Origin: Schmidtea nova
Lineage: Eukaryota
Direction of reading: 5' to 3'
Assembly (NCBI GenBank): GCA_044892505.1
Contig: CM097882.1
Span: 569,098,001-569,162,000, forward strand
DNA: 64,000 nt
This document shows, piece after piece, positions 31,325-59,709 of the stretch. A program made the position numbers and the translations under genes. Under the pieces are notes generated by a model. The model did not search any database, had not been told where the DNA came from, and worked only from the letters and a program-made list of their open reading frames with translations. How positions within the stretch are numbered: the first letter of the stretch is position 1; every line of letters begins with the position of its first letter.

Positions 31325-32763
31325 TNNNNNNNNNNNNNNNNNNNNNNNNNNNNNNNNNNNNNNNNNNNNNNNNNNNNNNNNNNNNNNNNNNNNNNNNNNN
31401 NNNNNNNNNNNNNNNNNNNNNNNNNNNNNNNNNNNNNNNNNNNNNNNNNNNNNNNNNNNNNNNNNNNNNNNNNNNNNNNNNNNNNNNNNNNNNTTGGTCT
31501 AAAAAGGCAAAAATATTGTACTAATTTAAACAATAAATACAAATAATAACCACAAAAACATTCAAAAAAACCTAAATTAAAAATTAAAATAAAATAATAA
31601 ATAATAATTACTAAATTTCCAGCAAAGGAAGAAAATCAAATTGACACAAGAACGAGCAGTATGGGGGTCTGAAATAAGAAAATTACCAATAAAATCAAAT
31701 AAAAGTACAATTAATTGGTTAATTACTTGAAAAAATCGAGACCACCCAGCGAGAAATCTGAACCGGAAATTTAAAATGGTTTATATTAAAATAAAATAAC
31801 AAAATTACTTTGATGGACGGCCTGATCCTGATTGGTCAATCTGACCAACTGGATCAGTATAAATACCGATCCAAAAATCATACAGATAACATCTAAAAAC
31901 TTAGCTACCGAACTGATTTATCATAGTCAACTTTGATACGATAAATACTGTGAAAATTTTTGGAAAACACTGCATCGTGGATTGAAACAGTAAATTTTCT
32001 TTTGTATTGTATTTTGCATAAATTTTTATGATATGTTTCATGATTCCCATTTGTTTTATTTAATATAATTTATTACTATTACTCTATTTTTCTTATGCCA
32101 TTATTTTATGATATAATAAATATACTTCCTCAGTAGCTTACGCTGCGAGGGAGCAAGCCGTAAATGTGGGATTTCACCGTTCCACAAGATGGTGAGCAGA
32201 GTTTCTATTGGTATTCTTTATTTAATTTAATTTTATCGGAAATTTCACGGTACGGTAAAGTTGTGCAGGGACAAGGACACGAGTGAAATTTGTAGACAGT
32301 GGTTAACATTTACATTCGATCAGACAGGCGAAAACAAACTATAACATAAATTATCAGGTCGACTAGATCGATTTTTTCATATACACGCAAATTTTTATAA
32401 ATCAACATAGCTGATCGAAATAATGTCCGGACACACCGAGACGATTTCGACGTTTCAACTACAGTTTAATTTAGACATAAACAACGACATATTCGGATCG
32501 ACCCTACTGATTAAATAAGTAAAATCGTAACCTGATCGCTGTACATAGCGCAGGTAATAATAGGTAAATTTTTAATATTCCGATCGCTGTACATAGCGAC
32601 GGTGTTAATTGAATAGTTTGGAAAATATTTTTTTTTTTTTCATTCTCCCTTTTCACATTTTTTTTTTGTGTTATTGATCAACGAGCAGAGCACTTTTTAT
32701 CAGGTCTCACAAAAATTTACGGATTTATCACAGTAAATTCTATTAGCATTATTATTTTCGCAG

Positions 32764-33264
32764 ATGAAATCAACGATACTGGATGAATTTCTAACAGCTC
32801 AACGTCATGTGGCACGGGTCGAGAATCCTCTAATCCGGACGCAACGGAAGAAATTGAAGTCGCTTCCACAGGAACTCCTCAGAACGCTAAATGCGTTGAT
32901 GTATAAATGGAGAAGGGAACTAGGAAAGAAATGCCCATTTTCGATTTGGGCCGGTGGATTGGATACCATCGTATATCGAGGAGGCCCCGGATGGGAAATT
33001 CAGGACGAAAGAGACCGGGAGACGACAGCTCTGTTCGTCATAGTGGTGTCAGACAGTGAAGGAAATCCAACGACAGTGATCCATTGGGGATATGTCTCAC
33101 CCCTCAAGTTGCTTCAATTCGGGTTGATTCCGAATCACCTACCAAAAACATGCCATGAGCGTCCCAAACTCAACTGTTCAATGGCTCACCTCCGACGAGA
33201 TCCAGTAAATCGCGGGTTGCATATTACTCCCGTACACGGCCTCAAGCGAAGTGTTTTCCACTAA
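32764..33264 (+). CDS. LTR-encoded ORF A, 166 aa, unknown function
   Basis: ATG ORF preceded by pyrimidine-rich TTTTCGCAG; more GC-balanced than its flanks; identical protein in the 3' LTR. Confidence 0.7.
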   Translation: MKSTILDEFLTAQRHVARVENPLIRTQRKKLKSLPQELLRTLNALMYKWRRELGKKCPFSIWAGGLDTIVYRGGPGWEIQDERDRETTALFVIVVSDSEGNPTTVIHWGYVSPLKLLQFGLIPNHLPKTCHERPKLNCSMAHLRRDPVNRGLHITPVHGLKRSVFH

Positions 33265-33447
33265 ACATTATATTCACATTTTTATAAGCTAAACGATTTC
33301 AATAAATTAAATGGTGTTGATCCGTGTTTTGTTTGTTCTTAGTTAAATTTATTTCTATTTATTTAATCATATGATTTTTACACTCGACGGATAATATTAA
33401 TCTTGGTAACATGTTTGATGCATTATAAATTGGGTTTGTTATTTAGT

Positions 33448-34038
33448 ATGACGGAAACTAGCCAACAGCGAGAATTGGACAAGGCGTGGAGAATCCGCCG
33501 AGCATTGGAAAAGGAGCTAAACCAGGAAAAAGCCTTACGAGCCAAAGCAGAAGCTCAGATTCAGCATTTACGGACCAGCTGGTTCGCACCAGCTCGCATG
33601 AAGGAGCAGATGAGTCGGACAGAAAGGGCTCAAAAGACAGCTGACGATTATCGGACCGAATGGGAAGCAACAAAAATTGAGTTGCGCCGATGTCTCCATT
33701 CGGTGACGACTTCATTTATCGAGTCCGAATTGAAAGCACAAATCCGACCCATTACTTACCAGAAATGGGTAGGAGAACAGAGAGTGGCCTGCTCAGTCAG
33801 TACAGACACCGATGGACTCGAGGCAACCACAGTGCAGAATCGGGTGGAAACCACCACTGTACCAAACCCCGTCGGAAAAACGAATAAGCGGAAACGAATC
33901 GGCTCCAAGCGCCGTCGCCAAAGAAAGCTGTTTTCACAACAATTGCAGACACAAGTAACCACTATGGCAGAAATGTCGGAGGCCGAGTGGTTATCAGAGA
34001 TATTCCCTCCAGAAGGAATTTTCAAAGAATTTCTATAA
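33448..34038 (+). CDS. LTR-encoded ORF B, 196 aa from the first ATG; coiled coil plus basic NLS-like tract
   Basis: MTETSQQRELDKAWR...; KRKRIGSKRRRQRK; preceded by TTTAG; identical protein in the 3' LTR. Confidence 0.72.
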   Translation: MTETSQQRELDKAWRIRRALEKELNQEKALRAKAEAQIQHLRTSWFAPARMKEQMSRTERAQKTADDYRTEWEATKIELRRCLHSVTTSFIESELKAQIRPITYQKWVGEQRVACSVSTDTDGLEATTVQNRVETTTVPNPVGKTNKRKRIGSKRRRQRKLFSQQLQTQVTTMAEMSEAEWLSEIFPPEGIFKEFL

Positions 34039-34524
34039 CAGATAGAATACGATGTCCGATTTGGGAGTCAATTAAATTTTTGCTCGTGTTTGTTTTGTTG
34101 TTGTTATTTCTTTTGTATTTCCTTCGATTAAATAATTCATATAATTAAAATTCAATTACCCGTCACACAACGAAAGAAGTAGCGATAAAAAGAACTTAAA
34201 TACTATCAAATTCGTAGTTTGGTTTTGCCTGTTTGTTTTGTTTTTGATAAATATATAGCCTCACACACACAAAATAGAACAATAATTGCGTAAGTCCTTC
34301 TACGGCCGCGTGAACCCGTAAGCATAAAGGGGGAGTAGTCCTAGCAATAGTGCTCACCTGCCCCTCATTGCTTAACCACCCTGCGCATCACCAACTTGGT
34401 TATCAAGGGAAATAATCAAGGGCGCTCGAGTGTAGATTACGACTATTTATGCATGATCATGGATGGGAGATCCCTAGCAATCATTAAAATTTTTACCAAA
34501 CCGTCCATGAACCCAGCATAAATT

Positions 34525-34542
34525 TGGGGGCTCAGCCGGGAT
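34525..34542 (+). promoter_or_regulatory. Primer-binding site, tRNA-Pro type
   Basis: TGGGGGCTCAGCCGGGAT matches the canonical Pro PBS TGGGGGCTCGTCCGGGAT at 16/18 positions. Confidence 0.85.
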
Positions 34543-34851
34543 CAACTTCGTTTTATCGGAAAATTGTGAATGCAAAATCTGCAGAGAAGTTTAAAGTGCT
34601 CGTGTCGTGTGAATAAATTTAATAAAAACAGAAAATTGGTAATTAAATCTAAATGATGTACAAAAATAAACAACAAACACAACAGCAAATAAAGGTAAAG
34701 TTATAAAAATCGAAGGCATGCATAAATAATTTGTCGGGACGACAATTTTTGGAAACACGGGGAGAGTAAATAAATGCTAAAAGATGCAAAACGAAACATA
34801 TTACTACGTTAAAAATTAAATTCACAAAACGAGACATATTACTACTTTAAA

Positions 34852-35355
34852 ATGATAAAAACAACTAAGTTAAAACGATTATTTATTCAGCAAATGGAGG
34901 AAAAACTGAAAGAAATCGAAGAATTTCTCAACACAGAAAACGAAACATTAGCAACAATTGGCAAGAAAATAAACCGATTTAGAGAAATTGAATTTCAAGA
35001 ACCCACAACACAGACCGAGGAAACAGATGAATTAATAAAGATAACAGAAAGAACAAGTAAAATCGACATAAAAACCCGCTACAAATGGTACCGAGCACGA
35101 CTAGAGAATGCGGAGCTAAACATTAGATGCAGACAAATAGAACAACAATTAACCCCAACATACAATCGATGGAAGGCGCAAGGGGTAGAAGCAGCGAAAA
35201 AATACCGACAGTGCTATATATGTGAAAACAACGAGATACAAATTATGTTTTTACCTTGCGGACATTTCCGTTTTTGTAAGACCTGTGCCAACAAGCGTGA
35301 CCAGTGTCCGATGTGCAACTTTACTGTGAATGAAAAAATTATGGTTTATTTGTAA
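34852..35355 (+). CDS. Coiled-coil plus C-terminal C3HC4 RING protein (IAP/RNF34-type RING), 167 aa
   Basis: CYICENNEIQIMFLPCGHFRFCKTCANKRDQCPMCNFTVNEKIMVYL; AATAAA at the stop codon. Confidence 0.9.
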   Translation: MIKTTKLKRLFIQQMEEKLKEIEEFLNTENETLATIGKKINRFREIEFQEPTTQTEETDELIKITERTSKIDIKTRYKWYRARLENAELNIRCRQIEQQLTPTYNRWKAQGVEAAKKYRQCYICENNEIQIMFLPCGHFRFCKTCANKRDQCPMCNFTVNEKIMVYL

Positions 35356-35831: not shown

Positions 35832-36064
35832 GAGATTTGTCCCTTGAAACAAAGGGTTATGAGATTTGTCCCTTGAAACAAAGGGTTATGAGATTTGTCC
35901 CTTGAAACAAAGGGTTAAGAGATTTGTCCCTTGAAACAAAGGGTTAGGAGATTTGTCCCTTGAAACAAAGGGTTATGAGATTTGTCCCTTGAAACAAAGG
36001 GTTAGGAGATTTGTCCCTTGAAACAAAGGGTTATTAGCGGTTTGTCCCTTGAAAAAAAGGGTTG
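35832..36064 (+). repeat. 29-bp tandem array, 7 near-perfect copies plus 1 degenerate (GAGATTTGTCCCTTGAAACAAAGGGTTAN)
   Basis: Units start at 35832, 35861, 35890, 35919, 35948, 35977 and 36006. Confidence 0.97.
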
Positions 36065-36232: not shown

Positions 36233-36848
36233 GTGAACTATAGATATATCCGGATAAATAGTAATAGAGGGAATATAGACCCATAGTGTAATCGTCGACG
36301 AGATTTAGAGTAGTGCGCACTAGTAGTTAAGAGAATGCGAGTAAAGCTGACTATGCAACCTTGAGTAAAGCATGCAAGGAGAATAGTAAAAATTTTTTTT
36401 GGGCTGACCGGAACAACCGGCAGAATAAGTAAAAACGATTGCTAGCAGGGAATAATGAATAGAAATGATAAAATAATGATAAACGAGTCAGAAAGACTCA
36501 GGGAATTAGAGCGCTCGAGCGACCAATAAATTGGGAAACTGTGGGAAAAGTAATGGATTTGATAAAACATAGATAATTATTACGACATAAATAGATAATT
36601 GTGACCAGTCTATAGATAATTTAAATAGACTAAAAATAAAGGGGAATCTGGGAAGGGGAAAATAATGAAAACCCAGTAATAAGTAATCCCGAAAGAAAGG
36701 GAATAAAAGCGCGACGATAACAATAAGGTATCGTTGAGGACCTTTGTATTTTAGATATACAAATCAATCAAACCAATCAAGCAACAAGAAGAATCAGAAA
36801 AACGATAATAGATAGGACAAGAAAATTGATAATATAAAAGTAATCCAG

Positions 36849-39800
36849 TTGAGAAAAGGAGCAAAGAGTGTCGCAATAAAGCCAACAAAAAAGCAGAAAG
36901 CCGGCAAAGATAACCACAAAAACCCACAAGGGAGTAAAGCGAGGAAAATAATAAGAGATAAATCAATTATCGAAAACGATAAATTGTCAGTAGTAAGCAA
37001 CAGCTCAAGTAACAAAGAAAACCAAGCGGAACCCAAGGAGAACCAAACAAGCGAAATAGAAAGCGACGAAACTAACAACGATAATATCGAAGAATTAGAA
37101 AACGAGGTAGAACCAGAGGTAGAAACCAACGAGAGTGATAACGAAAGTATAATATCAGATAACATAATAATAAGAGAAACTGAAAGCGATTCAAGCTCGA
37201 GTGAAACAGAAGACGAACACAACAACGAATTAGAAACAAGAAGAAACGAAAGTAAAATAACTCAAGACAGCGGAATTGAAATGAGTGAACCAAGAGAAGA
37301 AATAAAGGATAAATTCCCAGGAGAACCATTCAACGGAGATGCGAGTAAATTAGAAATTTTTCTAAAGGAATTTGGCATATTCGTGGAAGTATGCAAATGG
37401 AAAGCTGAGACAACAGCAAGTAGAATACAGTTATATTTGAAAGATAGCGCATTGGACCTATATTTGGAAGCAAAAAACGGTACCAATCCACCTACAAGCT
37501 GGACAGCGATAAAGGATTTTTTCCAACAAACATTTGGAATAAATAAAGTGCTGAGCGAGGCATTCATAGAATTCTCAATGAGGAAACAAAAGATGAATGA
37601 ATCTAATGCGGTATACGCAAGCGAACTGAAAAAATTAGCAAAATCGGTATTCAAGGATGGAGGTCCAATAAACGAGGAGTTAATGGCAGCTATCTTCATA
37701 GGAGGACTAAGAAGACCCGACATAAGAGCGCAAGTAGGATGTCAAGGATGCAAAACCATAGATCAAGCGTTAGAAACAGCTAACCGATTTGAATTGCATA
37801 TGATAGGGAGCGAAGGCAGAATTTATTTAGCCATGGACACAGCGCAAACCGAACCAGAAGTAAATCTCAACAATCACATTCCAAATTCGCAACAATTAAA
37901 CCGACCACCCCCTCAACGAAGGAATGAAGGAAATAAAGCGCAGAACTTTGAAAGCCAAAACAATTACAACCCTCCAAGACAAACAAAACAATGTAAAACA
38001 TGCGGGAAGTTAGGACACTGGCAGCAAGAATGCTATCAAAATTTGAATTGCGGAAAATGTGGAGTTAAAGGACACTCGGAAAGCAGATGTTCTACAATAA
38101 TCTGTTTTAATTGCGGACGACCTGGTCACTATTCAAGAAATTGCGGACAAAAAAGTAATCAGCGAGGAAACTGGCAGAGTAATGGGAACCGACCAAATTA
38201 CGGAAATCAAGCAAATACCGTAAACCGACCAGATTATGGAAACCAACAAAACAACAATAACAATAATCAGAACAAAACCACCCCCAAAGAAATTCATTTG
38301 ATGCAAGAAGTTCAAAGGTTGACGGAACTCATAAACAATACGACGAGAGGAAATCCGCAAACCAATCAACAACAAATTAGCATGATGAGAAAAATAGAAA
38401 GCGAAAACGAACGATTGAATCGAGAAAGTCAAGCACGACACGCTCAGGAATGGGCAAGAATACAAAGAGAGGATGAACAAAAACAGCAAGAAAGAGAACG
38501 ACAACCTCTAAGAATTAACATGCTAAGAGCAACAAACCAAACAGACACTCGCGAGAAAGAAATCACACTGGAAATGAATTCGATAGACCCGAATCCAGCC
38601 GACAACGAAAGTCGAAAAGAAATAGTACAAAAAGATGAAGAAGTAGAAAAAGAAGCAGAAAAGGGAGTGGAAACCGAGATAAACCAGGAAGAGAGGAAAG
38701 AGATTTGGAAAAAAGGAATGATGGTAATCATGCCCAACGACCATATGTTTCGATTCCAATATAACGCAAAAGAAGAAGTGAAAGTATTATTCAACAAAGT
38801 AAACCAGATGATTCCAGGAGTAACGAAGCTGCCCAGAGAAGCGTTCTTACAAATAGAGGGTGCACCATCAGTAAAATTGAAATTAACGGATATATGGGAA
38901 AACATGGGAGTAGTAGAAACAAAAAGAAATGTGATGAGAATTAAAGAAATAGAACCAGAAGAAATTCCACCACCAATACGTCACGAAACCCGAATCCGGC
39001 GAATATTTGAAGGAAAAATGATAAGAAGACGTTTAAAAGAGATAGACGAGTTGGGAAAGAAAATGGAAAAAGTCGAAGTAATAGAGGACAAGAGTGAACC
39101 AACACTAGAAATTGACAAAAACGAACCAGAACCAACGGAGAATATACAAGGAGAAACGAACCAAATAGCACATATTAATATGCTAAGAAATACCACCAGA
39201 GAGTTTTCCGATGAAGAAGAAGATAGTGACATCAGTAGCTTAGCAGGAGACATATTAAATGAATCCGAAGACGAAAATAAAGAAAGAGAAGTAATAAAGA
39301 CCTCAGAACCTACACAGATAAAAGTAGATGAAATCCAGAAATTACTAGATAACTCGCTAGAAGTAATATATAACGAAGAGTTCATGGACAAGAAACAATA
39401 TCGGAAATTCATGAAAGCATTACTACAAATGAACTACAAAGAATGGTTACAAGACCGGGAGGTAGACATGTTGAATCGATACGTAGGAAAATTAATAGAG
39501 GAACCACTCCTCAATTACACCATCTCAATAATAATAAATACATCTACACCAAGAATCTGGATCAAAACTCCATTTACAGACGATATCTACAGATGGGTAG
39601 AGGATAGACTAGGGAGCTCATACAAAAACAAATTCATCTATTCGCAGAATAGACTCGTAAAGAAAAGAACGCACTTAGTAGAAACAGGTATATGGCCAGG
39701 AGAAATAACTCTGTTATCAATATGCGATGAAAAGGAAGAAGAGAACCTACAAGAAGTTGCAAGGGAGGCAAACACGTGCTTCGAAAGGAGAATAAAACCT

Positions 39801-42800
39801 CGGTTAGAATACGAGAAAGAACGAGTCTTACGAAAGAATCTGAATTCCCTGATAGAGCAAATCATACCACAAGTCAAAAAACATAGAAAGGAGTTAATGA
39901 GAAGCGAATACGAGAAATTGAAACAATGTATTGAGTGCATACGTGACACAAGTCACACGAGATGGTCACAAATCTCACACGACAAATTAATCGCAAAAAT
40001 GGGAAAAACAATCTTCAGACAAGGGAAAATAACAGATCTAAAAATTTCAGTGGAATTGCCTAATGAAGACACCAAAGAAATTGAAGTAGTAGCGGATTGC
40101 ACCATTAAAGAATTAATAAATATCATCAACGAGACACTAGTGCAAAGAGAACCAGAAGACGAATGGGAAGACGACATAATCATACAATATAACGAACATG
40201 TATTATGGGATCACGATGAGAGACGACTATATAAAATCGGTATATGGGATAATCACCAAACCATCCACGTTATCAGAATGGACGATACACCCAGAGAAAC
40301 TGCTAAAGATGAGAAAAGAGAACGGGAACGACGGAAAGAAGTTGTGCGCAAATTACAACAAATAGTAGACATCTATCGAAATTGGCGAATTTGGCCAGAG
40401 TGGGAAAATGTATTAGGAGAACTCAATCTCAACAGACGAAGACGAACACCCGTAGAAAAACAATGGAACGAGAAAGGAAAATGTTGGGTACCAAAGGAAG
40501 GGGAATATGAAGAAGAATATGAAAGAGGAATGGAAGATGACTGCGAATCAGAAATGAGAAGGGTTTGCATGGTGACAAGGAAAGCTACGCCAATAGACCT
40601 AGATGGACCAGAAACAGCGGCTATATGGGTAGAAAAGGAAAAACAAAAAACGGAAGAATTTGTCGAAATATTAAAAACTAATGCGCACGGTAAGAGAAAA
40701 ATAATAAAAGGTCTCGCAGATTTTTTCGTGGTTAATGGAGAAGATATAACATGCTTGCGTAAAGTGGCAAAGGCAATCGCAGAATATAAAAGAGTTAACG
40801 AGTGGTGCCCGGAACAACTAGACCACGTAATTAGGAAATGGAGAAATCAAGAATTCTCGCAGGAAATTCCACAAAAAGTGCATTTAAGAATAATATATCC
40901 AAACAAGGATAAGGAAGAATTGTGGGTAGGAATAGCAGAAAAAATTCGAGATATTAAAAAGAAATTGAGATACGAACCACCATTCCATTTACAACACCAA
41001 GGACGATCATTAGATAACAGTTTGGAAATCGGAATAACGCCAGTACAACTAGACCTCATGAATACCTTGACAGTAGAAGCAATAGCAGGTCAACCATTAA
41101 AACGTAAAGAAGAAAACCATAAACCACACGGAAGTATAAGTACGCCGAGCCCGATGGAATTAGTACCAACGACAGGGACAAGTTCAAGACGATCTGAGAC
41201 AACACCCAGAGGGAATAGAGAAATGACTCCACCACAACCCTACGACGTGGACGAAATTTTAACAGACAGCGACGATATGATAGAAGAATTAACCGAACTA
41301 ACAAAGGAAAAAGACGATAACATTTTCGAAAGAATACAAGAATTACCTACGACTGTACAAGTAACCAACACCGGAGAAACAGAAGTCGAAGAAGAGATAA
41401 TAATAGAAGAAGTAAACGATTTGACGGAAGACGAAACAAGAGGAGCGAATGTCGAAAATGTACGATTAACACAAGAAATGGAAAGATGGTTGGAAGAAAG
41501 AGCTAACGAACCAAGAGATGTTACGGAAGAAACCGGACGAGCAACAAGATTTGTGGAAACGGGTACAGGAATGGATAGACGACCTCGAGGTAGACCCAAG
41601 ACAGATCCGGCAAATGTAGTCATCAGAAATAAGGATGAAAAGAGACAAGATCAATGGGAAGTATGTTTAAAGAAATTAAATAAAATCGCGGAGATAAAAG
41701 AAAAAGAGACAACACCAATATGTCAAGGTGAGGAATGGATATCGAAAACAATAATGGAAATATTGGCAATAATTGATCCGGAATTGAAAAAATACTGGCG
41801 CATAACTGAGATAAGCGAAAAGGCGAAGTCATTGCACAGCGCAATTGCACCCATCTTACCGGAATTCATAAAAGAAAAGACGAAGTCAAATCATTTAGAC
41901 TGGCAAGGAACCACTACGTTAATAAAGAAACTGACAGAAGGAGCGGAAACAGATAACAAATACGTAATAGCCATTGCATACACGATCTACAATCTGTTGA
42001 CACTGAGTAGAGGTCGACCAAAACCCACTGCATTAGAGAGACATATAAAAAATACCGCAAAGATTATAACTAGAGAAATAGAACCATACATCATTAACAA
42101 AGGAGGATGGGAAACATTTATCAAAACTAACCAGAAGAAAACGCAAGCGAAGAATATGAAAAAGAAATTCGAAAAAATATTGGAAGAGTTAGAAAAAGAA
42201 CAAACAGGAACAGGGAACGCGAAGTCATCAATGAATTTGAGTTCTATAATAATGATGATGTTGATATGGATGATTAGCACCGATAGCGCAACAGCGTTCG
42301 AAGTGTTTGATTGCGACCAAATGAAGTTAGGAGAAAAGTATTCATTGAGAGGCACGGAGCAATGCAAAGATGCAACTCCAGTAGAGTTGCAAAAGATTAA
42401 AAAGGAACAATGGTACCACGTGTATCAAGAAGCAGAACTCATAAAGACAATGGTGAATGAATGTAAGGTGCAGAAGACGAGATTCGCATTCTACTGCGGG
42501 AGAGGACATTATTCAGCAATTGTCATGCCAGGAACGGAAAGAGAACCAATCGTGTTACAAGGAGAGGACTGCGAAGCACTGTTTAAACATGGAGAAGTAA
42601 CAACAAGAGATAAAATCAAGATAAAAGGAAAGCCAGGAATGATGATGCAACAGACGTACTATGTAGCAGGACGGATTACGGGAGGAGAAGGATATTGTCA
42701 AGGAGAAACCTACCCGATGTTCGGAACACTCGCGACCAACTTAGTGGTGATGGATACGTATATAGTCGAACTAAAAAGCTACGAAGCATTTTTCGAACCA

Positions 42801-45800
42801 ACAACGGGAGAAATGAAAACGTTATCCATGTGTAAAATCGACAGGAGCATGTGTCAAACGGGAATGTCAACATTAGTGTACAAACCAAAGGTAAACGAAT
42901 GTCAGTTACAACTACTACAAGGAGCAAAGTTCGACGAAATCCAAGGAAAAACGTTCCAGGAAGAAGACGATGACGACAAAGATAGAGCAAAGCATCTCAA
43001 GGAAGCTTTAGAGAATAAAAGACAACTGAAACCAGATCATAGAGAAAAACGAATAGAAATGAGAGCCACACCAACAGTGTTGATAACCACAAATCAAGAT
43101 GTGGGAATGAGATTCATAAAAGGGAAAGCAACCCTTAAGTGTAGTACAACGGTATACGAAACAAATTACCCAGGAATATATGTGTCAAAACAAGAAGTGC
43201 CAAATGCGAAACCCAAAATCGACACAATGGATATCAAACTACACTTGTATGTGAATAATAAAATGGATTTCCTATTCCATAGAGGACAAGCCTCATTACA
43301 AAAAGTGTACTACGATTTGATAAATAATGATTGTATACTGAATCGAGAAATATTAAAGACAAAGTTGGCCGTAGCAATTACGAATCCAGATAGCGCGATG
43401 CCATTATTACCACTGAGAGAAGGACATTTCGGAAGAGTGGTTGGAGAAGCAATGTATGTATACATTTGTGAAAAGACACACGCATCGCTAGCAGCAACAA
43501 CACAGTTGAAACCTGGAACCTGTACAAATGAGTTAGAAATCGACTACAAAGGAAAAGTACGATACGTTCAACCAGTGACGAGAATCATCAATCCACCAGG
43601 GTTTGAACCAAATCCATTCAACTGTAGTAATGCGTATGGACCGCTTTATCAAAAACCAGATGGTAAATGGGTTATGTTCCCAGGAAGATCCGAAGTGATA
43701 GCACCAAGAGAATTCGAATTAATGCAGTTGTCAAAGGATAGACAATTCAGCGACGTAGATGTCTCAAACAACGGAATATATAGTCCAAAGGATTTAGAAG
43801 CAGCAAGGCAGAATATATTATTCCCAGCAAGAAGAGAAGCATTATTGTCAAATATCGTAACGATAACGGGAGGAACGGATTATCGAGAAGGACCGAATTA
43901 TGAACTGTTGTTGTCACCAGCACATTTTAAGAAAGCCACAGAAAACATGATGAAAGCAATGTGGGGAAGATTTCTGATATTCGGACAAATGATGGCCGGA
44001 ATACTGGGAGTCATATTAATAATCCAAATTGTCAGAGTGATAATAACGCAAATGTTAGCGTGTTTCGATATCTACAAGAGAGAAAAGAAAGTGAATTGGA
44101 AAATGGTGGTAGGGTTTTTACCATTCCTTGCGAAAACGATGGTGTTACACGGTCACTCAAAAGATATCCACCGAATAAAAAGACTCCTAAAGATACTAGC
44201 AAAAATGAAGGGAACAGATGAAGAAGTAGGACGAAAATTTAAAAAGATAATGAATGACGAACAAGCAAGACAACAGCTCAAGAGAGAAAGAAAAGGTTTA
44301 TGGGAGAGGGTGAAAGGATATAAAACCCAAAATGATTCGAGTGACGACGATGATGACGACGACGACTATAAGGGAGGACAAGTGTATAAGAACCAAGCAC
44401 CCCAATACATTGAAAAGAATCCAGCCGACGCGTGGAAATGTTACGCACCTCCACCAACAATGTACCAAGAACCACTACAAGGAGGAAAAAATAGCACAAT
44501 GCAAATGATGCCAATGACAAATGTATACCCCATGATACCAGAAGATTATAAAATGAGAAGATGTAGAAGCGTAGATCCACAAGGAGATACACACACGATC
44601 GCAGTAATGTCATCAAACACAGGTCCAGTACTAACCACGACAATAGAAATTAACGGAAGAGAAATCGAAGCAATGATCGACACTGGAGCAAATATTTCCG
44701 CCATCGATATCAAATGGATACCACAAGAGCAAAGACGAGATATAGAAAGGACAAACGTCCACGTAATTGCATGTAGCAAAGAAGTTGTAGAAGTAGCAGG
44801 GAGATGGTGGGTAAAAATACGCCACTTAAATACAGAAATCGATACGTACGTAGCAGTCATACCAGCATTAAGCGTACCTTGCATTATCGGAACAGATTTG
44901 ATGCCAGCATTATTTAAAGAGATTGTAATCGACCTCGGAACAATGAGACTAAAGGATCGCACAGGACAAATATGCGCAATAGAAGCCAAAGTGACAAGTT
45001 CAAAGCAAATGATAATACCCGCAAGAAAGGAGAAAATATGTTACGTAAAAATAGATCCGACAATCCAAGGGGATATGATTTTCGAACCAAGTAAGAGATT
45101 CGAGAAAAGAAAAGCGTTGCCAATGGCAAGAGGACTAGTCAACATAAACAATAATGGGGAAATCCCAATAAACGTAGTAAATTTCGACGAGGAGGATAAA
45201 ATAATCTACGAAAACGAAAGATTAGGCAAACTAACCCCAATGATGGATATCGAACTACCAATAGCAGGAGCAGAGAAAGATAAAGAACCAACATGGAATA
45301 TTGATAGTGAACTACTAAATGAAGATCAAAGGAAGCAGTTAGAAAAACTTTTGATGGAGTATAAGGATATATTTGCAGCATCCGATTTAGATCTAGGAAC
45401 ATGTGATGTCACGTTACATACGATACCATTAACCGACGAAACACCAATTGCATTAAGACCATACAAATTAGCAGAAGCACAGAAAGCAGTAGCGGAAGCA
45501 GAAGTGAAGAAAATGTTGGATGCAGAAGTAATCGAACCAAGTTGTTCACCCTGGCAATTTCCAGTAGTAATGGTAAAGAAGAAAGACGGAACACAGAGAT
45601 TCTGCATAGATTATCGAAGATTGAATACAGTGACAAAACGAGATACTTACCCATTACCAGACATCAACGAAATGCTACTAACATTACAGGGAGCAGCATA
45701 TTTTACATCGCTAGATCTAAAAAGCGGATACTGGCAAATAAAAATGAAGGAAGAAGATAAAGAGAAAACTGCCTTTACCATCGGTAGAGACCTATATCAA

Positions 45801-48800
45801 TTTCGAAAGATGCCCTTTGGATTAACAAACGCACCAGCATCATTTCAGAGATGCATGAATTTCGTCACCCATGGAATAAAGCAGTGTATGGTCTACATTG
45901 ACGATTTATTAATCTACTCTAGCACGTTTGAACAGCACATACAGGATATTCGAGATGTATTCGTTAGACTTAGACAATGGAAGTTAAAACTCAAGCCATC
46001 CAAGTGTGATTGGGCGAAAGAGAAAGTAACATTTTTAGGACATATAGTGTCAGCAAAAGGAAAAGAACCGGATCCTAGAAATATCGACAAAGTAAAGGAA
46101 TGTCCAGTACCAAAAACAATAACCCAGATACAAGAATTTCTTGGACTATGTGGATATTATAGAAAGTTTATAAAAGATTACGCCGGAATAGCAAAACCTA
46201 TACAGGAACTAGTAAAGAAAGATGTATCCTTCATATGGGGAGACGAACAACAAACAGCTTTCGAGACATTAAGAGATAAACTGATAACCGCACCCATATT
46301 GGTACACCCAGACTTCAAGAAGCCATTCTTACTTGCAACAGACGCAAGCGGATATGCAGCAGGAGCAGTATTAGGACAATACGACGATGAAGGAAAAGAA
46401 CGCGTAATCGGATATTATAGCCGGACATTCAAAAAGCATGAGAAAAATTACTCAGTAACCGAGCGAGAAGCGTTAGCAATCATACTAGCAATTAAACACT
46501 TTAAATATTTATTATGGGGACACATCATCTGTATAACCACAGATCACCAACCGCTTGTGTGGTTAGGACAACATAAGGAAACCTCCAGTAGATTAATGCG
46601 ATGGGCAATGCAGCTACAGGAGTACTCACCAGACATAAAATTTAAATCAGGACGAGCGAATGCGAATGCAGACTGTATGTCCAGACTGACATTTCCGGAA
46701 TTAACCGACCCGGATGTACAACGAATTTGTGTATTAATAGCAGAAGATTTAGATTTTAGTGAGTTAAAGAAAGATCAACAGGAAGACAGAGAGTTAGGAC
46801 AGATCATAGAGTTCCTAACATCTCGAAATATGGAGGTATTCAAAGATAATAAAGAATTAAAGGAACATATAGGAAAATATCAACATCGATATATAATAAA
46901 TAAAGGATGGTTATTGATACAAGACGGTGAAAAGAGGCTGATGTGTTTACCGGAAAACAGAAGGAAAGAGATAATGATCCAATACCACGATGGGAAATTA
47001 GGAGGTCATATGTCAGAGAAAAAGACAATAAATCGGATGAGACAGAAATATTATTGGCGAACAATGGAAGAAGATATAAAAGAATGGATTAAAAATTGCC
47101 TAACCTGCGCAACTAGAAAGGATAGTGGGAGGAAATGGAAGAACCCGCTGCAACCAATGCCGATACCAGCAGAGCCAATGACAACTATAGCAATGGACGT
47201 AATAGGACCATTACCAGAAAGCTTAAACGGAAACATTTACATACTAGTAATAACGGATTACCTGACGAAATTCCCGGAAGCATTCGCCATGCAAGATCAA
47301 AAAGCAAAAACCGTAGCAAAAATTCTAGTGGAAGAAATATGCTGCAGATATGGAACTCCAAAACAAATACTCACAGACCAAGGAACTAATTTTATGAGTG
47401 AGTTATTGAACGAGGTGACAAACTATTTCAGAATAGCGAAATTGAGAACTTCACCATATCATCCACAAACGAATGGTCAAACAGAGCGATTCAATGGCAC
47501 ATTGATTAGAATGTTATCAAACTATGTCAGCAGACACCAAACTGATTGGGACGAATACATAAAATTATGTTTAATGGCATACCGAATGTCGATACATGCC
47601 GCAACAAAACTAAGCCCGTTTCAACTTATGTATGGCAGAGAATGCAACATGCCCATAGATTTGGAGTACCAGCCACCATTATCGCAATATATGGAAGATG
47701 ACGACTACGTAACCAAATTCAAAGAAAGAATGCAGGAAATATGGAAAACGGCAGAACTTAACATTAAATTTTTTCAGGAAAGTTATAAGGACCTACACGA
47801 CCAGAAGAAAAATGTTAAAGCGAACGATCTAAAACCAGGAGATTGGGTGATAATAGAAACTCCCGAAATAATACCAGGAACGGTTAAGAAACTCCAAAGA
47901 CCTGGAAGAGGACCTTATGAAATTATATACAAAAAGGACAATAATGCCAAAGTTAAGCTAATAAACCGACCATTAATACGACCCATATATGTAAACACCT
48001 GCAGATGTAAGAAGGTGCCTAAAACGATAACTACAACACCAGAGAATCGAATAATAACCAGATCACAAACAGCCAGGATAAACATGCTCAGAGCAAACAC
48101 CAGCGAAGACGACAAAACAGAAATAAGGCAAAAAGAAATCAGAAATAAAGAAGTCCTATTGAAGGCGAGAGAGATAATGGGAAGATGGCATGTTAGAGAC
48201 GAAGCAGGCATATCAAGGGACATTAGACACATAATTAGCCGTTACGCACAAGGATTACCAACCGAACCAATTATTTCTGAATTATTGATAAAAATCCCTG
48301 AAATACTCTTATTAAAAGATGTAGGAGGACAACCAGCCTTACATAATGCGATTCAGTGTAAAAACATTGAAAGAGCAAAAGAATTCTTGAAAATCGCAAA
48401 AGAAACAAACCAAAACCTAGACGTTGGGAATCGTGAACAGGAAACTCCATTAATGACAGCAGCCATCTACCAAGCAGATAAAGAAATGGTAGATCTGTTG
48501 ATAAAAGCTCGTTTCAGTTGGACAGAACGAGATAGAGAAGATAAAACAGTGCTAAATCACGCGATATGGAGTTCTCACCAACTTATGTTGGAATATATAA
48601 TAGCAAACTCCACGTGGGAAATAGACGAATTAATAAAAGGAGACCTTATCAAAGAGGCAATCAAAATTGGCAAATGTAATACGATCCGTAAGTTAATCGA
48701 ATGGAAACGACCAGAAGAGGATACATGGGTCTTAGACATAAACGAAGTATACAGCGAAGGACAAAACGCACTGTTGAGATACCTTTTGAAATTTACTTGT

Positions 48801-51800
48801 GATCAGAAGACATTACTAACCTTATTAGACAGGGGAAACATAAACATCACAAAGAATGAAGAAGAACACAAATTCGATAAAGAGAAGGAGGTCTTATTCA
48901 ACAAAATTAGGAAATGGTGTGCGAAACCACTTGATAAACTAATAACATACAAAGACATAAATAATTTTAACGATAAATACCAGACGATAGTAAGTGAGTA
49001 CGAGGAATTAGTAAAAATCTTAAACCATCCCGAAAAATGCAAACAGGTTTTGGAGAGAAAAGAAAGAGAAAGTAACAAGAAACTCACACCACTCTTCAAA
49101 GCAGAAGCACCATACCAAGCGAGACTAGATGCGATACAAGAAAAAGCAAAAGAATTGTTACCGGAATTCGAGAATAGTAAACATGCACTAGAAATACTCG
49201 GCGCATTAGTTGAAAAAGTACACGCATACGCAAAAGGAACATACAATGGTAACGACATAGTAATAATAAAAAAGGAGATGCCAGTAACATTCCTATTACC
49301 AAAAGACGGAATAATGCCCATACATAGAGCTCTACGAAATGGCAAAGATAGGAAAGTAATGGAAATTGCAAGAGTAATGCTAAATTGCGGAAGCAATATG
49401 AATATGATAGACGAGAAAGGAGATACGCTTATGGTATTTGCAGCAAGGGCCAAAACGAAAACAAAGGTATTAGAAGAACTATACAAAGCAGGTGCAGGAC
49501 TTACAGGAAAGACAGATAAAGATAATTCGATATTGGATGTAGCATTATTAACACACAATTGGGAAATGGTCAATTTCATTAAAACCGTCCCAAATCAGGA
49601 AGAAATAGATCACCTAACTGATACGGTCAAGAAACCCAGTGTACTAGCAATGATGAACAACGTCGAACTAACAGAATCAATACTTACGTGGATAAATCCG
49701 AATACTAACGAACCAGCATTCAGGATTAATAAGTTTACAGAACATAACCAAAACTGGTGTATAAGAAGTGCCTTAATAACGTATAAATGGCCAGAGATAT
49801 TGAAGATGTTTATGGAAAGAAAGGATCTAAGAATCACAACCAGCCCGAAAGAAGAAAAATACACAGGCAAATGGAAAGAATTAATGAAGACATACATCAA
49901 CAATTGGATTAAGGCCAAAAAGGAAATCTTGGAACATAAATCCACTAACAAAGTAATACCGGAGCAGGTAGAAACACAAGAATTTGAGGCAAGTAATCTA
50001 ACGACATTAGCGTATGCGAAACTAATAGAAGAAATCAATGTCGAGGACGACATTTTCGACGAGCCAGGGGGAGATGACAACACAGATAGTGACGACGGTA
50101 ACAACTCAGAAAATTCAAGCGATCACGAACCACCCGATAAAGGGGAAAACGAGAGAAAAGACAAGAAACGAGACAAGGAAGGAAAGAAAGGTGAAGACGA
50201 AAAACAAAGAGATGAAGAGAGAAAACAAGGAACAAACGACCAAGGAGATAAAAATGACACCCAAAGAACAGGTTATAAATCAACCATAAAACCATTCTTC
50301 AAACCAGAATTACTATTATTAACAGTGATTTTAACGTTAATTAACCCAAGTCAAGGAATGACATGTGAAGAAAGGGCAATAATACAAATAAAAAACGCGA
50401 AAGGAATCGAACGAGTATGTTGGTCAAAAAAGGACAAAATCACGGAACAAAATAGTCCGATGGATTGCAGAATCTCAAAACACGAGCAAGAGATCATAGA
50501 GATCAATGACCTAGATCTAAATACCTGGTACAAAATATGCACCGTTAGAAAACAAAAGCATCCAAGATCACACAACACCATCGCATGTGCAAAATACCAA
50601 ACACCTAAAGCAGCCATGACAATACAACAGTCACCCAAAGGAGATTACATCATCGGAAAATGTGGAAGGACAGAGACACAGGGAACAGAAAACAAAAAAC
50701 CCCAGGCAACAGATAAGCAAACAACACCAACCCTACGAATTACAATAGAGAGGCCTGAAGCAAGAGTTGCCACAAACGAAACCGAAAGAGTGTCTTACCA
50801 AATGGAAGTATTATGTTTAGCACTCATACTAATAATGATAAAACGATTAGAGGAAGGAATAGAAATTGAAACTATGACAATAACAGAAGTAGAAGATACA
50901 CAGAGTACTAACATAAAATGTTGGGCGAGAAATAACGAGGAAATCGGCGTAAACGAAATAAGGAAAAGTCGAAAACCAACAACGAATAAAGTAATTAAAA
51001 TATCCGAAGTAAAAGCAGATAAGACGTACAAACTATGCCTACTAGAAAAAGAAACGAACAAGAAAGGTACCACAAAATGTAAAACATTTCAACCCGGAGA
51101 AGTAATAAAGTTCAGAAGGAGAACGAGGAAGAGAAATAAACAAATCAAGCGGAAAGTAAACATAACATTAGAAATAAAAGAGATAGAACCAAATGTGAAA
51201 GGAGTATGCTGGAGGAAGTACGAAAAAGAAGTAAATAAAAGAACGACACCACAATGTCGAACAAACACGGGAACAACGACAATTCAAATAAAAGGTTTAA
51301 AAAGTAAACAAACCTACGAAATATGTCTGGTAAAGGAAAATGATCAGATAACGATAAACGATCTAGAATGCGGAATATATACAACTTCATCCGGAACAAG
51401 AACCAAAACGTTAACACGGAAAAATAAAAGGAAACAACAAAACAAAGGAAAACCGAAGTACACCACTACCTTTAAAAACAATAAACAACCAACAAAACAA
51501 GAAGTTACGACGAAACCCGAGAGAAAAACATCAGCAACTCTAACATTATGGAAAATAGAGAATAAAACATTGAAAATATGTTGGATAATAGTACAGAAAC
51601 ATATAAGAAGACAATCAAGAGAGTGCAGAAAAACAAATAAAGAAATCAAGATCGAAAAACTACAATTTAATAGCGAGTACGAAGTATGCGCAATAGAAAA
51701 AATGGACGCACTAGGAAACCAACAAGAAAGATGCGAAACCTATTATACACCAGCAAACGCGACATCAAAAGGAGTAGCAAGGAAAATCGAATTCAAGGAA

Positions 51801-54241: not shown

Positions 54242-54334
54242 ATAAATAAAGCGGAAAATTGTAAATATGTAAAAATAAAAACAAGAAAAACCAAAAAATA
54301 AATGACAAGTCGAATGTATATATTATTGTAGAAA

Positions 54335-55711
54335 ATGGACAGAGAAGAACGAATAATCGAAATTTTGAGATTAGAAAACAGAAAATGGAGCAAGAGGCTC
54401 ACATGCGGAAAATGTAACAATTTATTACGAGAACCCAGACAAACGATATGTGGATGTAGAATATGTACAAAATGTATACAAGAATTAGATGCAACAGGAA
54501 TAACAACATGCCCAGAATGTAAGGAAGGAAGAATAGTGTTGGACGAAACCAGAACGGACAAAGCAACCCAAAGAGAAATTATGAGCACCACAACGGAGTG
54601 CGTAAATACACCTTGTACATGGCAAGGACAAATAAGTAATCTAGAAAATCATATGGAAAAGTGCGAGGAGAAAAGAGCCGAATGCGAGAAGTGCCAACAA
54701 ACAATAATTCTAAAGAAGAGAGAACAACACAAGGACGAATGTAAAGAAGAAGAAATCGCATGCGAGTATTGTGAAACTCGAGAAACAAGGGGAAAAATCG
54801 AAGAAGAACATTTGAATATAGCAGAGGAGAAAGTATGCGGACAATATGTAAGTAAATGTCCAAACAATTGCGAAATAACAGAAGAAATAAAGTTACATGA
54901 ACATTGGAAAGTATGTACCGAAAGGCCAAGAGAATGCCCATATAACAAGCATGGATGCAAGGAAAAGCGGACGCGACAAACAATGAACAAACACCTAGAA
55001 GAAGCAGCACTAACGCATGTGGAAATGACAAACGAAACGACAAAAGAAACGGAACAGACAATCCAGAAATTAGAAAAAGAAGTAGAATCACATAAGATAA
55101 TGATGAGTTTACTACTAGAAACAAGAGAGCAGTTTGAACTAACTCGCGAAAGAATGGAAAAGAAAATAATAGCCATAGAAGAATTAGGAAAAGGAATGAA
55201 AATACAATATAATCAATTAATACGAGAAATTGACGAAAGAAGGGACTTACCAATCGCACCTTACCTATGGAAAGTAACAGATTTCAGAGACAAACTAGCA
55301 GAAGCCAGAAATATGACGAAAACAGCAGTAATAAGCCCACCATTTTATTTATGGAAAAACGGGGTGAAAATAAGATTGAAAGTATACCCAAATGGAGACG
55401 GAAGAGGACAAGGAACACACGTGTCAATATTTTTCTCGCTATGTAAAGGAGAATACGATGACCTAATAGAATGGCCCTTGAAAGTAGGAGTCATTATAAG
55501 AATCAAAAGTCTGGGAAAACCAGTAGAAAAATTCTTTGAAACAGACAAACATACGAGTACAAGTGAAAAACCAACAACGGAATGCGGACTAGCAGCAGGA
55601 GAACCAATGTTTATAAGGACAGAAAACCTATGGGAGCGACTATATGCAGACACGCTATACATAGAGATGGAGAGGCATGAGAAAACAGACAGAAAAGGAT
55701 GGTTGGCGTAA
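54335..55711 (+). CDS. TRAF: Full-length intronless TRAF-like protein (RING, TRAF zinc fingers, coiled coil, MATH)
   Basis: RING CGKC...EPRQTICGCRICTKC...CPEC; Zn fingers H..KC...C..C; MATH YLWKVTDF...SPPFY...KVYPNGDGRGQGTHVSIFF...GEYDDLIEWP. Confidence 0.95.
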   Translation: MDREERIIEILRLENRKWSKRLTCGKCNNLLREPRQTICGCRICTKCIQELDATGITTCPECKEGRIVLDETRTDKATQREIMSTTTECVNTPCTWQGQISNLENHMEKCEEKRAECEKCQQTIILKKREQHKDECKEEEIACEYCETRETRGKIEEEHLNIAEEKVCGQYVSKCPNNCEITEEIKLHEHWKVCTERPRECPYNKHGCKEKRTRQTMNKHLEEAALTHVEMTNETTKETEQTIQKLEKEVESHKIMMSLLLETREQFELTRERMEKKIIAIEELGKGMKIQYNQLIREIDERRDLPIAPYLWKVTDFRDKLAEARNMTKTAVISPPFYLWKNGVKIRLKVYPNGDGRGQGTHVSIFFSLCKGEYDDLIEWPLKVGVIIRIKSLGKPVEKFFETDKHTSTSEKPTTECGLAAGEPMFIRTENLWERLYADTLYIEMERHEKTDRKGWLA

Positions 55712-55823
55712 TGAAGGAAGTAACCATGTAAATAAAATGTATAGAAACAATATGAATTAACAAATAATCAAAAACAATAAAATAAAAAATGATTAAATAT
55801 TCTTTTTATCTGTAATTATAGAA

Positions 55824-57525: not shown

Positions 57526-59025
57526 ACTTTGTGAACATCTCTGATGAACCTTTAACTATCCTGTGACAATAATCTGATAATATTCAACTAGCCTATAACC
57601 AATCTCATGATGTGTATAAATTCTATCACCTTAAGTGATTTTCTTGTGTTTATGTATATATCTGTAAAACTTTTTATGTATGATGTTATAAGTAGTTATG
57701 TATAATTAATTGCGGGACGCAATTTTAGGGGTCCCCGAGTGATGTTGGGCCCACCAATTGGTCTAAAAAGGCAAAAATATTGTACTAATTTAAACAATAA
57801 ATACAAATAATAACCACAAAAACATTCAAAAAAACCTAAATTAAAAATTAAAATAAAATAATAAATAATAATTACTAAATTTCCAGCAAAGGAAGAAAAT
57901 CAAATTGACACAAGAACGAGCAGTATGGGGGTCTGAAATAAGAAAATTACCAATAAAATCAAATAAAAGTACAATTAATTGGTTAATTACTTGAAAAAAT
58001 CGAGACCACCCAGCGAGAAATCTGAACCGGAAATTTAAAATGGTTTATATTAAAATAAAATAACAAAATTACTTTGATGGACGGCCTGATCCTGATTGGT
58101 CAATCTGACCAACTGGATCAGTATAAATACCGATCCAAAAATCATACAGATAACATCTAAATACTTAGCTACCGAACTGATTTATCATAGTCAACTTTGA
58201 TACGATAAATACTGTGAAAATTTTTGGAAAACACTGCATCGTGGATTGAAACAGTAAATTTTCTTTTGTATTGTATTTTGCATAAATTTTTATGATATGT
58301 TTCATGATTCCCATTTGTTTTATTTAATATAATTTATTACTATTACTCTATTTTTCTTATGCCATTATTTTATGATATAATAAATATACTTCCTCAGTAG
58401 CTTACGCTGCGAGGGAGCAAGCCGTAAATGTGGGATTTCACCGTTCCACAAGATGGTGAGCAGAGTTTCTATTGGTATTCTTTATTTAATTTAATTTTAT
58501 CGGAAATTTCACGGTACGGTAAAGTTGTGCAGGGACAAGGACACGAGTGAAATTTGTAGACAGTGGTTAACATTTACATTCGATCAGACAGGCGAAAACA
58601 AACTATAACATAAATTATCAGGTCGACTAGATCGATTTTTTCATATACACGCAAATTTTTATAAATCAACATAGCTGATCGAAATAATGTCCGGACACAC
58701 CGAGACGATTTCGACGTTTCAACTACAGTTTAATTTAGACATAAACAACGACATATTCGGATCGACCCTACTGATTAAATAAGTAAAATCGTAACCTGAT
58801 CGCTGTACATAGCGCAGGTAATAATAGGTAAATTTTTAATATTCCGATCGCTGTACATAGCGACGGTGTTAATTGAATAGTTTGGAAAATATTTTTTTTT
58901 TTTCATTCTCCCTTTTCACATTTTTTTTTGTGTTATTGATCAACGAGCAGAGCACTTTTTATCAGGTCTCACAAAAATTTACGGATTTATCACAGTAAAT
59001 TCTATTAGCATTATTATTTTCGCAG

Positions 59026-59526
59026 ATGAAATCAACGATACTGGATGAATTTCTAACAGCTCAACGTCATGTGGCACGGGTCGAGAATCCTCTAATCCGG
59101 ACGCAACGGAAGAAATTGAAGTCGCTTCCACAGGAACTCCTCAGAACGCTAAATGCGTTGATGTATAAATGGAGAAGGGAACTAGGAAAGAAATGCCCAT
59201 TTTCGATTTGGGCCGGTGGATTGGATACCATCGTATATCGAGGAGGCCCCGGATGGGAAATTCAGGACGAAAGAGACCGGGAGACGACAGCTCTGTTCGT
59301 CATAGTGGTGTCAGACAGTGAAGGAAATCCAACGACAGTGATCCATTGGGGATATGTCTCACCCCTCAAGTTGCTTCAATTCGGGTTGATTCCGAATCAC
59401 CTACCAAAAACATGCCATGAGCGTCCCAAACTCAACTGTTCAATGGCTCACCTCCGACGAGATCCAGTAAATCGCGGGTTGCATATTACTCCCGTACACG
59501 GCCTCAAGCGAAGTGTTTTCCACTAA
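59026..59526 (+). CDS. LTR-encoded ORF A, 3' copy
   Basis: Same translation as 32764-33264. Confidence 0.7.
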   Translation: MKSTILDEFLTAQRHVARVENPLIRTQRKKLKSLPQELLRTLNALMYKWRRELGKKCPFSIWAGGLDTIVYRGGPGWEIQDERDRETTALFVIVVSDSEGNPTTVIHWGYVSPLKLLQFGLIPNHLPKTCHERPKLNCSMAHLRRDPVNRGLHITPVHGLKRSVFH

Positions 59527-59709
59527 ACATTATATTCACATTTTTATAAGCTAAACGATTTCAATAAATTAAATGGTGTTGATCCGTGTTTTGTTTGTTC
59601 TTAGTTAAATTTATTTCTATTTATTTAATCATATGATTTTTACACTCGACGGATAATATTAATCTTGGTAACATGTTTGATGCATTATAAATTGGGTTTG
59701 TTATTTAGC

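Follow-up and report, generated by a model that had tools for sequence, protein, structure and literature searches.

A Bcl-2-like domain ahead of a probable internal envelope signal peptide in a Burro-type retrotransposon of Schmidtea nova

A 64,000-nucleotide stretch of the Schmidtea nova genome (assembly GCA_044892505.1, contig CM097882.1, positions 569,098,001 to 569,162,000, forward strand; hereafter the window) holds what sequence comparison identifies as a young, multicopy Ty3/gypsy retrotransposon of about 29 kb with Burro architecture, in whose single long polyprotein a Bcl-2-like domain stands ahead of the envelope glycoprotein (env). We rate as somewhat better than an even proposition that this domain is followed by the env signal peptide, cut at position 42296, and that the resulting Bcl-2 fragment stays in the cytosol, is likely held by the signal and likely dampens death or immune signalling. 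An earlier, sequence-only reading had described the segment 41730–42296 (residues 1639–1827 of the 5,647-codon frame) as a Bcl-2-like domain whose tail anchor doubles as the signal peptide of the following glycoprotein; the Ty3/gypsy polyprotein context was missing from it and is added here. The strings it named do lie in one common frame, with EEWISK at 41730, DNKYVIA at 41952, EPYIINKGGWETFI at 42081, the hydrophobic core LSSIIMMMLIWMI at 42237–42275 and A-T-A|F thereafter, its last Ala ending at 42296.

Homology, fold and selection of the Bcl-2-like domain

That the segment contains a Bcl-2-like domain, as first proposed, is borne out by comparison with its relatives. A search of genome G000 with PF00452 gave 33 matches over the cut-off among the best 150 scored; 30 of these loci were fetched, 16 of them sister elements with the order GGW, linker, hydrophobic segment and xxxYDC, and 14 host-gene-like. 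One further sister family was added by a separate search, and a protein library search with the domain plus the env start as query gave 100 proteins, seven with the domain before env and one fragment of it. In the resulting alignment of 12 rows, 15–28% identical to the window domain, each of the 12 relatives matches PF00452 at an E-value (E) below 1, with sister-family copies reaching up to 34.9 bits. The 12-row profile of env-adjacent domains matches Bcl-xL at E 4.6e-8, one of seven rows, built after removal of those chosen through the Pfam model, does so at E 8.5e-6, and in a leave-one-out comparison the window domain reaches 55 bits against the profile of its relatives; the A179L chain of African swine fever virus (ASFV) was also matched (E 6e-4). 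As to the Bcl-2 homology (BH) 3 and BH4 motifs, the Bcl-xL matches begin at profile position 68 of 198 and the N-terminal helices are modelled at pLDDT values under 60. By these profiles Bcl-2 homology is real at the family level and holds for alpha4–alpha8; a complete Bcl-2 fold is likely.

Both AlphaFold2 models are helix-only, in agreement with the all-helical segment seen at the outset. The model built on the alignment has a mean predicted local distance difference test (pLDDT) value of 60.6, with 72–84 over alpha4–BH2; the single-sequence model (pLDDT 46.5) was not used for the fold search. All 43 of the Foldseek matches listed belong to the Bcl-2 family (Mcl-1, Bcl-xL, Bak, NRZ; probability 0.84–0.99), and a wide structural search recovered KsBcl-2 (Z 7.0, root-mean-square deviation 4.1, 116 aligned) and F1L (Z 6.8). 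Several results at this level count against the reading. Taken alone, the window domain scores 14 bits against PF00452 (cut-off 31.4, E 0.078) and E 0.8 against Bcl-xL; the N-terminal half of the alignment-based model is mostly under pLDDT 60 and the model as a whole is middling; the Foldseek E-values are 0.02 or worse, none reaching 0.001 or below, with template modelling scores of 0.29–0.37 by query length; and in the wide search generic helical bundles equal or exceed the KsBcl-2 score, so that Bcl-2 is not separated from them. The ESM Atlas returned no usable match for the domain, and in word-index protein searches the window domain found none among the longer proteins and the profile found only P0030. 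A predicted complex of the core with a BH3-bearing peptide from host locus L032, which we take to be Bok-like, scored 0.02 in a run that made no use of the alignment, and weighs neither for nor against binding. Five G000 loci (L038, L042, L050, L056, L059) are near-duplicate, divergent host-type Bcl-2 genes without NWGR, some with a C-terminal tail, possibly an expansion.

Within the domain, the GW of BH2 (W-I-x3-GGW) is invariant in 12/12 rows and the first Trp is present in 10/12, the window having Tyr there. The degenerate BH1 claimed by the sequence-only reading is indeed eroded, its register being off by one: TDNKYVI, not DNKYVIA, lies opposite NWGRIVA, so that Lys1715 occupies the place of the conserved Arg, and Asn1714 that of the Gly. 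The Trp and Gly of NWGR are replaced in all 11 rows that have letters at this place, and Arg/Lys is kept in all 11. The BH1 Gly matters for BH3 binding, and its family-wide loss together with that of the Trp therefore makes ordinary BH3 binding doubtful, a further point against the reading. Ahead of the core lies a helix, CLKKLNKIAEIK, whose likeness to BH3 is our assumption and which has low pLDDT; it aligns with ERLREIAN, EKLREIAS and EKLKEIAN of sister families B, C and D, is kept in four families of G000 (the window, L073, L075 and L077) and was not seen in the aligned rows P0003, P0018 and P0056. Further upstream, a motif like RPRGRPK, presumably an AT-hook, stands 215–239 residues before env in three Bcl-2-bearing rows and 95–191 residues before it in three rows without the domain.

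Natural copies indicate that the domain is under purifying selection. The best 150 of 1,619 candidate copies in the same genome are all 94–100% identical over the domain, and eight of them have an internal stop. The ratio of missense to silent polymorphism per site (pN/pS) was computed from variants common to at least three of 50 copies picked by protein similarity over the domain, and again, against the ascertainment bias of that choice, from 30 copies chosen through env DNA; some copies belong to both sets. For the core it is 0.04 in the 50 copies (9 missense and 59 silent variants) and 0.06 in the 30 (9 and 38), about half that of the disordered stretch upstream (0.10, from 49 missense and 128 silent variants, and 0.12). 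Env gives 0.02 in both sets (9 missense and 100 silent among the 50). Counts are small for the signal segment (1 missense and 6 silent; 0.03, and 0.05 in the second set) and for the linker between core and signal (5 and 10; 0.11, and 0.17 in the second set). GGW and the Ala at −1 are unaltered in 50/50 copies.

The hydrophobic segment and its descent

The signal peptide and signalase-type site at 42296 proposed by the sequence-only reading are supported by both the segment itself and its relatives. In the window a 13-residue core is followed by the c-region STDSATA, with Ala-x-Ala at −3/−1. The survey of this region covered 104 sequences, 74 of them with the mature-start motif [YF]DC, of which 67 are long enough upstream; 30 were dropped because [YF]DC was missing around its expected position (for the most part fragments whose first residue lies within env) and seven as too short upstream. 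A hydrophobic core, taken as a best 11-residue Kyte–Doolittle value (KD11) of at least 1.8, precedes the mature start xxx[YF]DC in 11/11 sequences with the Bcl-2 domain, in 35/37 in which the start lies near the N-terminus, and in 19/19 internal rows without Bcl-2, of which only eight show gag or pol motifs and several others may be wrong start calls. A small residue at −1 with a small or aliphatic one at −3 occurs in 9/11, 27/37 and 15/19 of these groups, respectively, the cut sites being set by offset from [YF]DC and not by a trained predictor, which itself tells against the reading. Mean KD11 is 2.82 with Bcl-2 and 2.87 without it. The gag- or pol-bearing polyproteins with the signal and without Bcl-2 are P0002, P0004, P0006, P0010, P0012, P0016, P0021 and P0041, and free-standing glycoproteins of 596–719 residues carry an equivalent segment at their N-terminus. 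PF24664 matches start at model position 5–7, some 14–18 residues before the mature start (P0003, P0006, P0016, P0018). Over the full length of 11 checked rows the Bcl-2 domain is absent, the best score being 1.5 bits against 30–71 in leave-one-out tests of true rows.

The careful env tree comprises 20 rows, without family C (a near-copy of D), five distant internal rows and seven free glycoproteins; a larger set of 33 rows was given a quick tree only. Seven Bcl-2 rows and five rows without it share one subclade (90/89), within which P0002, P0004 and P0006, all lacking Bcl-2, group with the Bcl-2 row P0009 (96/92), and outside this Bcl-2-bearing subclade five rows carry the signal without Bcl-2. 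Monophyly of the Bcl-2 rows is rejected (approximately unbiased test, p-AU 0.0098). The distribution of the domain fits one gain with later losses, several gains, or recombination, and under each of these scenarios the presence of the signal is independent of it. Signal-like segments also recur twice after the ankyrin region of the same polyprotein, with no Bcl-2 ahead of them. Since the segment precedes the same mature start with or without Bcl-2, it is to be read as the env signal by descent, and hence is likely to be primarily env's own inherited signal peptide. The central claim of the sequence-only reading, a Bcl-2 tail anchor that came to double as a signal, is therefore not supported in that form, and any tail-anchor role of the segment is an unproven, topological by-product. 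The luminal glycoprotein predicted behind the site finds its counterpart in the strong PF24664 match (Table 1). The basic stretch described before the hydrophobic segment is present as part of a 42-residue linker; the end of that linker is polar and near-neutral, with a net charge of 0 over the 14 residues before the core. Among relatives both the linker sequence and the distance from GW to the cut (46–76 residues) vary.

Proposed processing and anchoring, and rival explanations

We propose that the one long frame is translated and that the internal signal would start translocation. Signal peptidase cleaves the internal signals of viral polyproteins, and a cut at A1827|F1828, by which the glycoprotein would enter the endoplasmic reticulum (ER) lumen, is very probable. 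Env would be a type I protein, whose transmembrane helix would return Pol to the cytosol. To release the Bcl-2 part from Gag, the polyprotein must also be cut on the N-terminal side of that part. The element protease may make this cut near residue 1253, a step to which we give even chances, and would thereby yield a product of about 575 residues comprising the Ubl-like region, the disordered stretch, the Bcl-2-like domain and the anchor. A cleaved signal remnant has its N-terminus in the cytosol and its C-terminus in the lumen, as in a tail anchor, and could hold this product at the ER. The Bcl-2 product, with the TRAF-like, RING and ankyrin cargo of the element, would then blunt host death or alarm signalling; a pro-survival or signalling role through a non-canonical surface is reasonably probable, and one through the classic BH3 groove is doubtful. 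A host gene is the likely source of the domain, which would have been captured into a slot ahead of an existing signal, its anchor thus being borrowed from env and not brought along. The fullest form of this proposal, in which a Bcl-2 domain captured before the env signal becomes an anchored product made at the capsid's rate, ER-bound, with eroded BH1 and its own BH3-like helix, acting during particle making and keeping the host cell alive or silencing its alarm, is a speculative extension to which we give rather low odds.

No stop codon follows the domain, and an anchor at the C-terminus depends on both the cut at 42296 and persistence of the remnant. Lasting anchoring, as opposed to a second cut by signal peptide peptidase, falls slightly short of an even chance. 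In its favour, the protease-type motif [RHQT][IV][NCSHA][MVA][LMIV] is absent between residues 1254 and 2593, the linker included (the next copy is at 2594), and the lack of a motif in the linker argues for retention of the anchor. The motif occurs nine times in the polyprotein, four of them at Pol borders, against 0.8 in shuffles, an excess that is overstated because this very sequence served to define the motif by eye. Besides this provenance of the motif, other features weigh against lasting anchoring. The linker of sister family D holds an INAE string; the window segment has a best 19-residue Kyte–Doolittle value (KD19) of 1.37, against 1.71–1.86 in three host Bcl-2 tails, and is rich in Ser, Asn and Thr, short and weak for a lasting anchor; and the corresponding segment of Flaviviridae is either severed from the protein ahead of it or itself cut by signal peptide peptidase, as described in PMC7601889. 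The flavivirus anchored capsid and the core–E1 junction of hepatitis C virus (HCV) are the nearest parallels, a single segment anchoring a cytosolic protein at its C-terminus and serving as signal for the glycoprotein that follows; unlike in the window, the capsid anchor is cut by NS2B/NS3 and that of HCV by signal peptide peptidase, and the proteins are unrelated, so that this is an analogy only (PMC7601889).

The strongest competitor to a signal-held fragment, though clearly less probable than it, is that the segment does no more than target env, after which it is degraded or removed, by signal peptide peptidase or at an unrecognised protease site, leaving Bcl-2 soluble or within a Gag precursor that is packed into particles. 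The short, polar-studded core, the likeness of the segment in relatives without Bcl-2 and the variable linker fit this account, and HCV and pestivirus core are freed in this way (PMC7601889). It is harder to reconcile with the motif-free linker of the window, with the longer cores of sister rows B, C, D and P0056 (KD19 2.0–2.4), and with the need of cellular Bcl-2 proteins for their anchors for full activity, as given in PMC7022251. That the segment is instead the captured gene's own tail anchor, turned into an env signal, is very unlikely: it does sit after BH2 in tail-anchor fashion, and in P0018 and P0056 the distance from GW to the cut (46–47 residues) is near the 33–43 of host tails, but segment and c-region are present in eight gag/pol polyproteins without Bcl-2 and in free glycoproteins, rows outside the Bcl-2 subclade already have the segment, and the basic end of two host tails is missing from it.

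Two further accounts concern the domain itself, and both are more improbable still. That the domain is a passenger in decay, or else a helical spacer without relation to Bcl-2 and with GGW by chance, would account for the sub-threshold single-sequence scores, the lack of a usable ESM Atlas match and the several relatives without the domain; it is at odds with the family profile (E 5e-8), the GW kept in all 12 rows at so low an identity and the pN/pS of 0.04–0.06, and is largely refuted by these profile and selection data. There is similarly little to recommend a pro-death function, in which the upstream BH3-like helix or the domain would promote death or membrane permeabilisation and so aid particle exit. 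Retention of the helix in the four G000 families and loss of the NWGR groove signature would suit it, whereas the helix is not seen in P0003, P0018 and P0056 and the best sequence matches are to pro-survival Bcl-xL. The rest of the element's cargo, which we liken to survival and NF-kB regulators, also counts against it.

The element, its relatives and its meaning

The element is bounded by two direct repeats, the long terminal repeats (LTRs), each at least 3.0 kb long, and measures at least 29.3 kb, with N at both borders and the true ends outside the view (Table 1). The 5' and 3' LTRs are near-identical (3019 of 3021 aligned bases), and the insertion is therefore young. The 5,647-codon frame encodes, in order, gag, a putative Ubl-like region, the Bcl-2-like domain, env, protease (PR), reverse transcriptase (RT), RNase H (RH), integrase (IN), ankyrin repeats and membrane cassettes. 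Its Gag has three CCHC knuckles and matches PF03732 at E 1.5e-4, just under the cut-off, and the Ubl-like region gives a weak Pfam match (PF18036, E 0.085). Positions 44970–45329, between PR and RT and at the place of the Burro dUTPase-like region, gave no Pfam match at E <= 1. Two other open reading frames (ORFs) with recognisable domains lie between the LTRs, a RING ORF ahead of gag, whose finger we take to be of the kind found in inhibitor of apoptosis (IAP) proteins, and a TRAF-like ORF behind the polyprotein. Two further signal-like segments lie at the end of the polyprotein; behind each come repeats that contain Cys and match fibronectin-III weakly (E 0.01–0.09), then a transmembrane helix. 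These cassettes are predicted to be receptor-like type I membrane proteins, and in families B, C and D a single, shorter one with this layout closes the polyprotein.

Table 1. Features of the element in the window (positions are those of the window)
Feature	Position	Strand	Basis
5' LTR, visible part, preceded by N	31494..34516	+	3019/3021 identity to 3' LTR
Accessory ORF, C-terminal RING finger	34813..35355	+	PF13920 E 3.6e-12
Single 5,647-codon frame	36816..53759, first Met 37281	+	Open reading frame, Pfam
Last protease-type motif upstream of domain, RVCMV, putative N-terminal cut	40560..40574	+	Motif by eye, residue 1249
AT-hook-like landmark RPRGRPK	41580..41600	+	Sequence
BH3-like helix ahead of core (CLKKLNKIAEIK)	41664..41699	+	Alignment with sister families
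Bcl-2-like helical core	41730..42110	+	Profiles, models, selection
BH1-equivalent	41943-41981	+	Alignment
BH2 (EPYIINKGGWETFI)	42081-42110, GGW at 42102	+	Alignment
42-residue linker, predicted as helix followed by coil, free of protease-type motifs	42111..42236	+	Model, motif scan
Probable internal env signal peptide	42237..42296	+	Hydrophobic core of 13 residues, then the polar c-region STDSATA; cut predicted behind 42296
gB/chuvirus-type fusion glycoprotein	42297..44045	+	Ectodomain from FEVFDC; Monjiviricetes-type PF24664 E 8.9e-73
Glycoprotein transmembrane helix	43989-44045	+	Hydropathy
pol: protease, reverse transcriptase, RNase H, integrase	44595..48089	+	PF00077, PF00078, PF17917, PF17921, PF00665 above cut-offs
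Signal-like segments and transmembrane helices of C-terminal cassettes	50304-50357, 52008-52070, 52305-52352, 53502-53570	+	Hydropathy, Pfam
TRAF-like ORF: RING, TRAF zinc fingers, MATH	54332..55711	+	PF22486 E 1.9e-20, PF02176 E 1.9e-7
3' LTR, visible part, N after	57758..60778	+	Repeat comparison

Some further observations, on the plus strand of the window where an orientation applies, concern the remainder of the element. The stretch directly after the 5' LTR (~34524–34542) looks to us like a tRNA-Pro primer-binding site, and the leader before gag (35798–36062) contains about nine tandem copies of a 29-base unit. An extra hydrophobic stretch is repeated inside each cassette ectodomain (50802–50840 and 52752–52790) and misfits a topology of one signal and one transmembrane helix. 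Behind the TRAF-like ORF lie a coiled-coil ORF of 362 codons (55797–56885) and one of 187 codons that may contain a membrane segment (56962–57525), with no convincing family found for either. ORFs of 175 and 223 codons are present in both LTRs (32737–33264 and 33367–34038, repeated at 58999–59526 and 59629–60300); the first pair was set aside as not relevant, with no convincing family found. Outside the element, a fragment of another gag-like element, unrelated to this one, lies at 17740–20006 (DUF7041, E 6.8e-7). Among the relatives, P0002, P0004, P0005, P0006 and P0041 have at least two aspartic-protease motifs in tandem after env.

Judged by its published description, the architecture of Burro1–4 (GYPSM1) from dugesiid planarians is that of the window element, with about 30 kb, long LTRs and one ORF of about 5,000 residues that includes a CCHC Gag, a Ubl-like region, matched weakly in the window, a BCL2-like region, an in-frame env between gag and pol, PR-RT-RH-IN, ankyrin and MATH/TRAF (PMC6431247). 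Unlike in Burro, the TRAF region of the window lies in a separate downstream ORF and the C-terminus is longer by two signal/transmembrane cassettes; unlike in the S. mediterranea Burro elements, no BIR domain was matched by Pfam in the scanned frames. The Burro Ubl-like and dUTPase-like regions were detected with HHpred, the order BCL2-env-PR has already been published, and interference with host apoptosis has been proposed for these elements, which number thousands per planarian genome; the section on these elements contains no mention of a signal peptide, anchor or processing (PMC6431247). BURRO1 transcripts are present in planarian tissue, according to PMC8532177. The GAG-ENV-POL errantiviruses of Nematoda, Bryozoa and Platyhelminthes share the gene order of the window and an HSV/gB-type env (HSV, herpes simplex virus), the ectodomain being flanked by a signal peptide and a transmembrane segment or by two transmembrane segments; 'bcl' and 'burro' occur nowhere in the main text of that study (PMC13524379).

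Cellular Bcl-xL and Mcl-1 resemble the window domain in alpha4–alpha8 and BH2, which align, and in a hydrophobic segment after BH2; unlike them, the window has lost the BH1 Trp and Gly, has a longer linker, and has its segment internal and followed by a signalase-type site, where it would target as an ER signal and not as a post-translational tail anchor. A captured Bcl-2 fold with eroded BH motifs is likewise found in ASFV A179L, KsBcl-2 and vaccinia F1L, N1 and A49, each of which, unlike the window domain, has a gene to itself in a large DNA virus. In viral Bcl-2 proteins BH motifs may be absent and action may lie outside the groove (PMC7022251, PMC4358236, PMC2836074); some are reported to act outside apoptosis (PMC4358236).

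Element type and domain order are thus known, and the signal-as-anchor processing reading is a modestly new, testable idea. Neither it, nor the family-wide BH1 loss, nor the absence of Bcl-2 from sister elements was found in a literature search whose scope ended short of Grohme 2018 with its supplement and of the supplements of PMC13524379. The present analysis gives the proposed link between Burro and apoptosis a concrete form, supplying the limits of a predicted product, a cut site, signs of selection and a BH1 Gly loss that is conserved. Should the remnant of the signal not act as an anchor, the segment is an internal signal of the ordinary sort, and the work confirms the published domain order. 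If it does, the polyprotein would turn captured host domains into membrane proteins at no cost, and the element would exemplify a death regulator encoded by a transposon of an animal.

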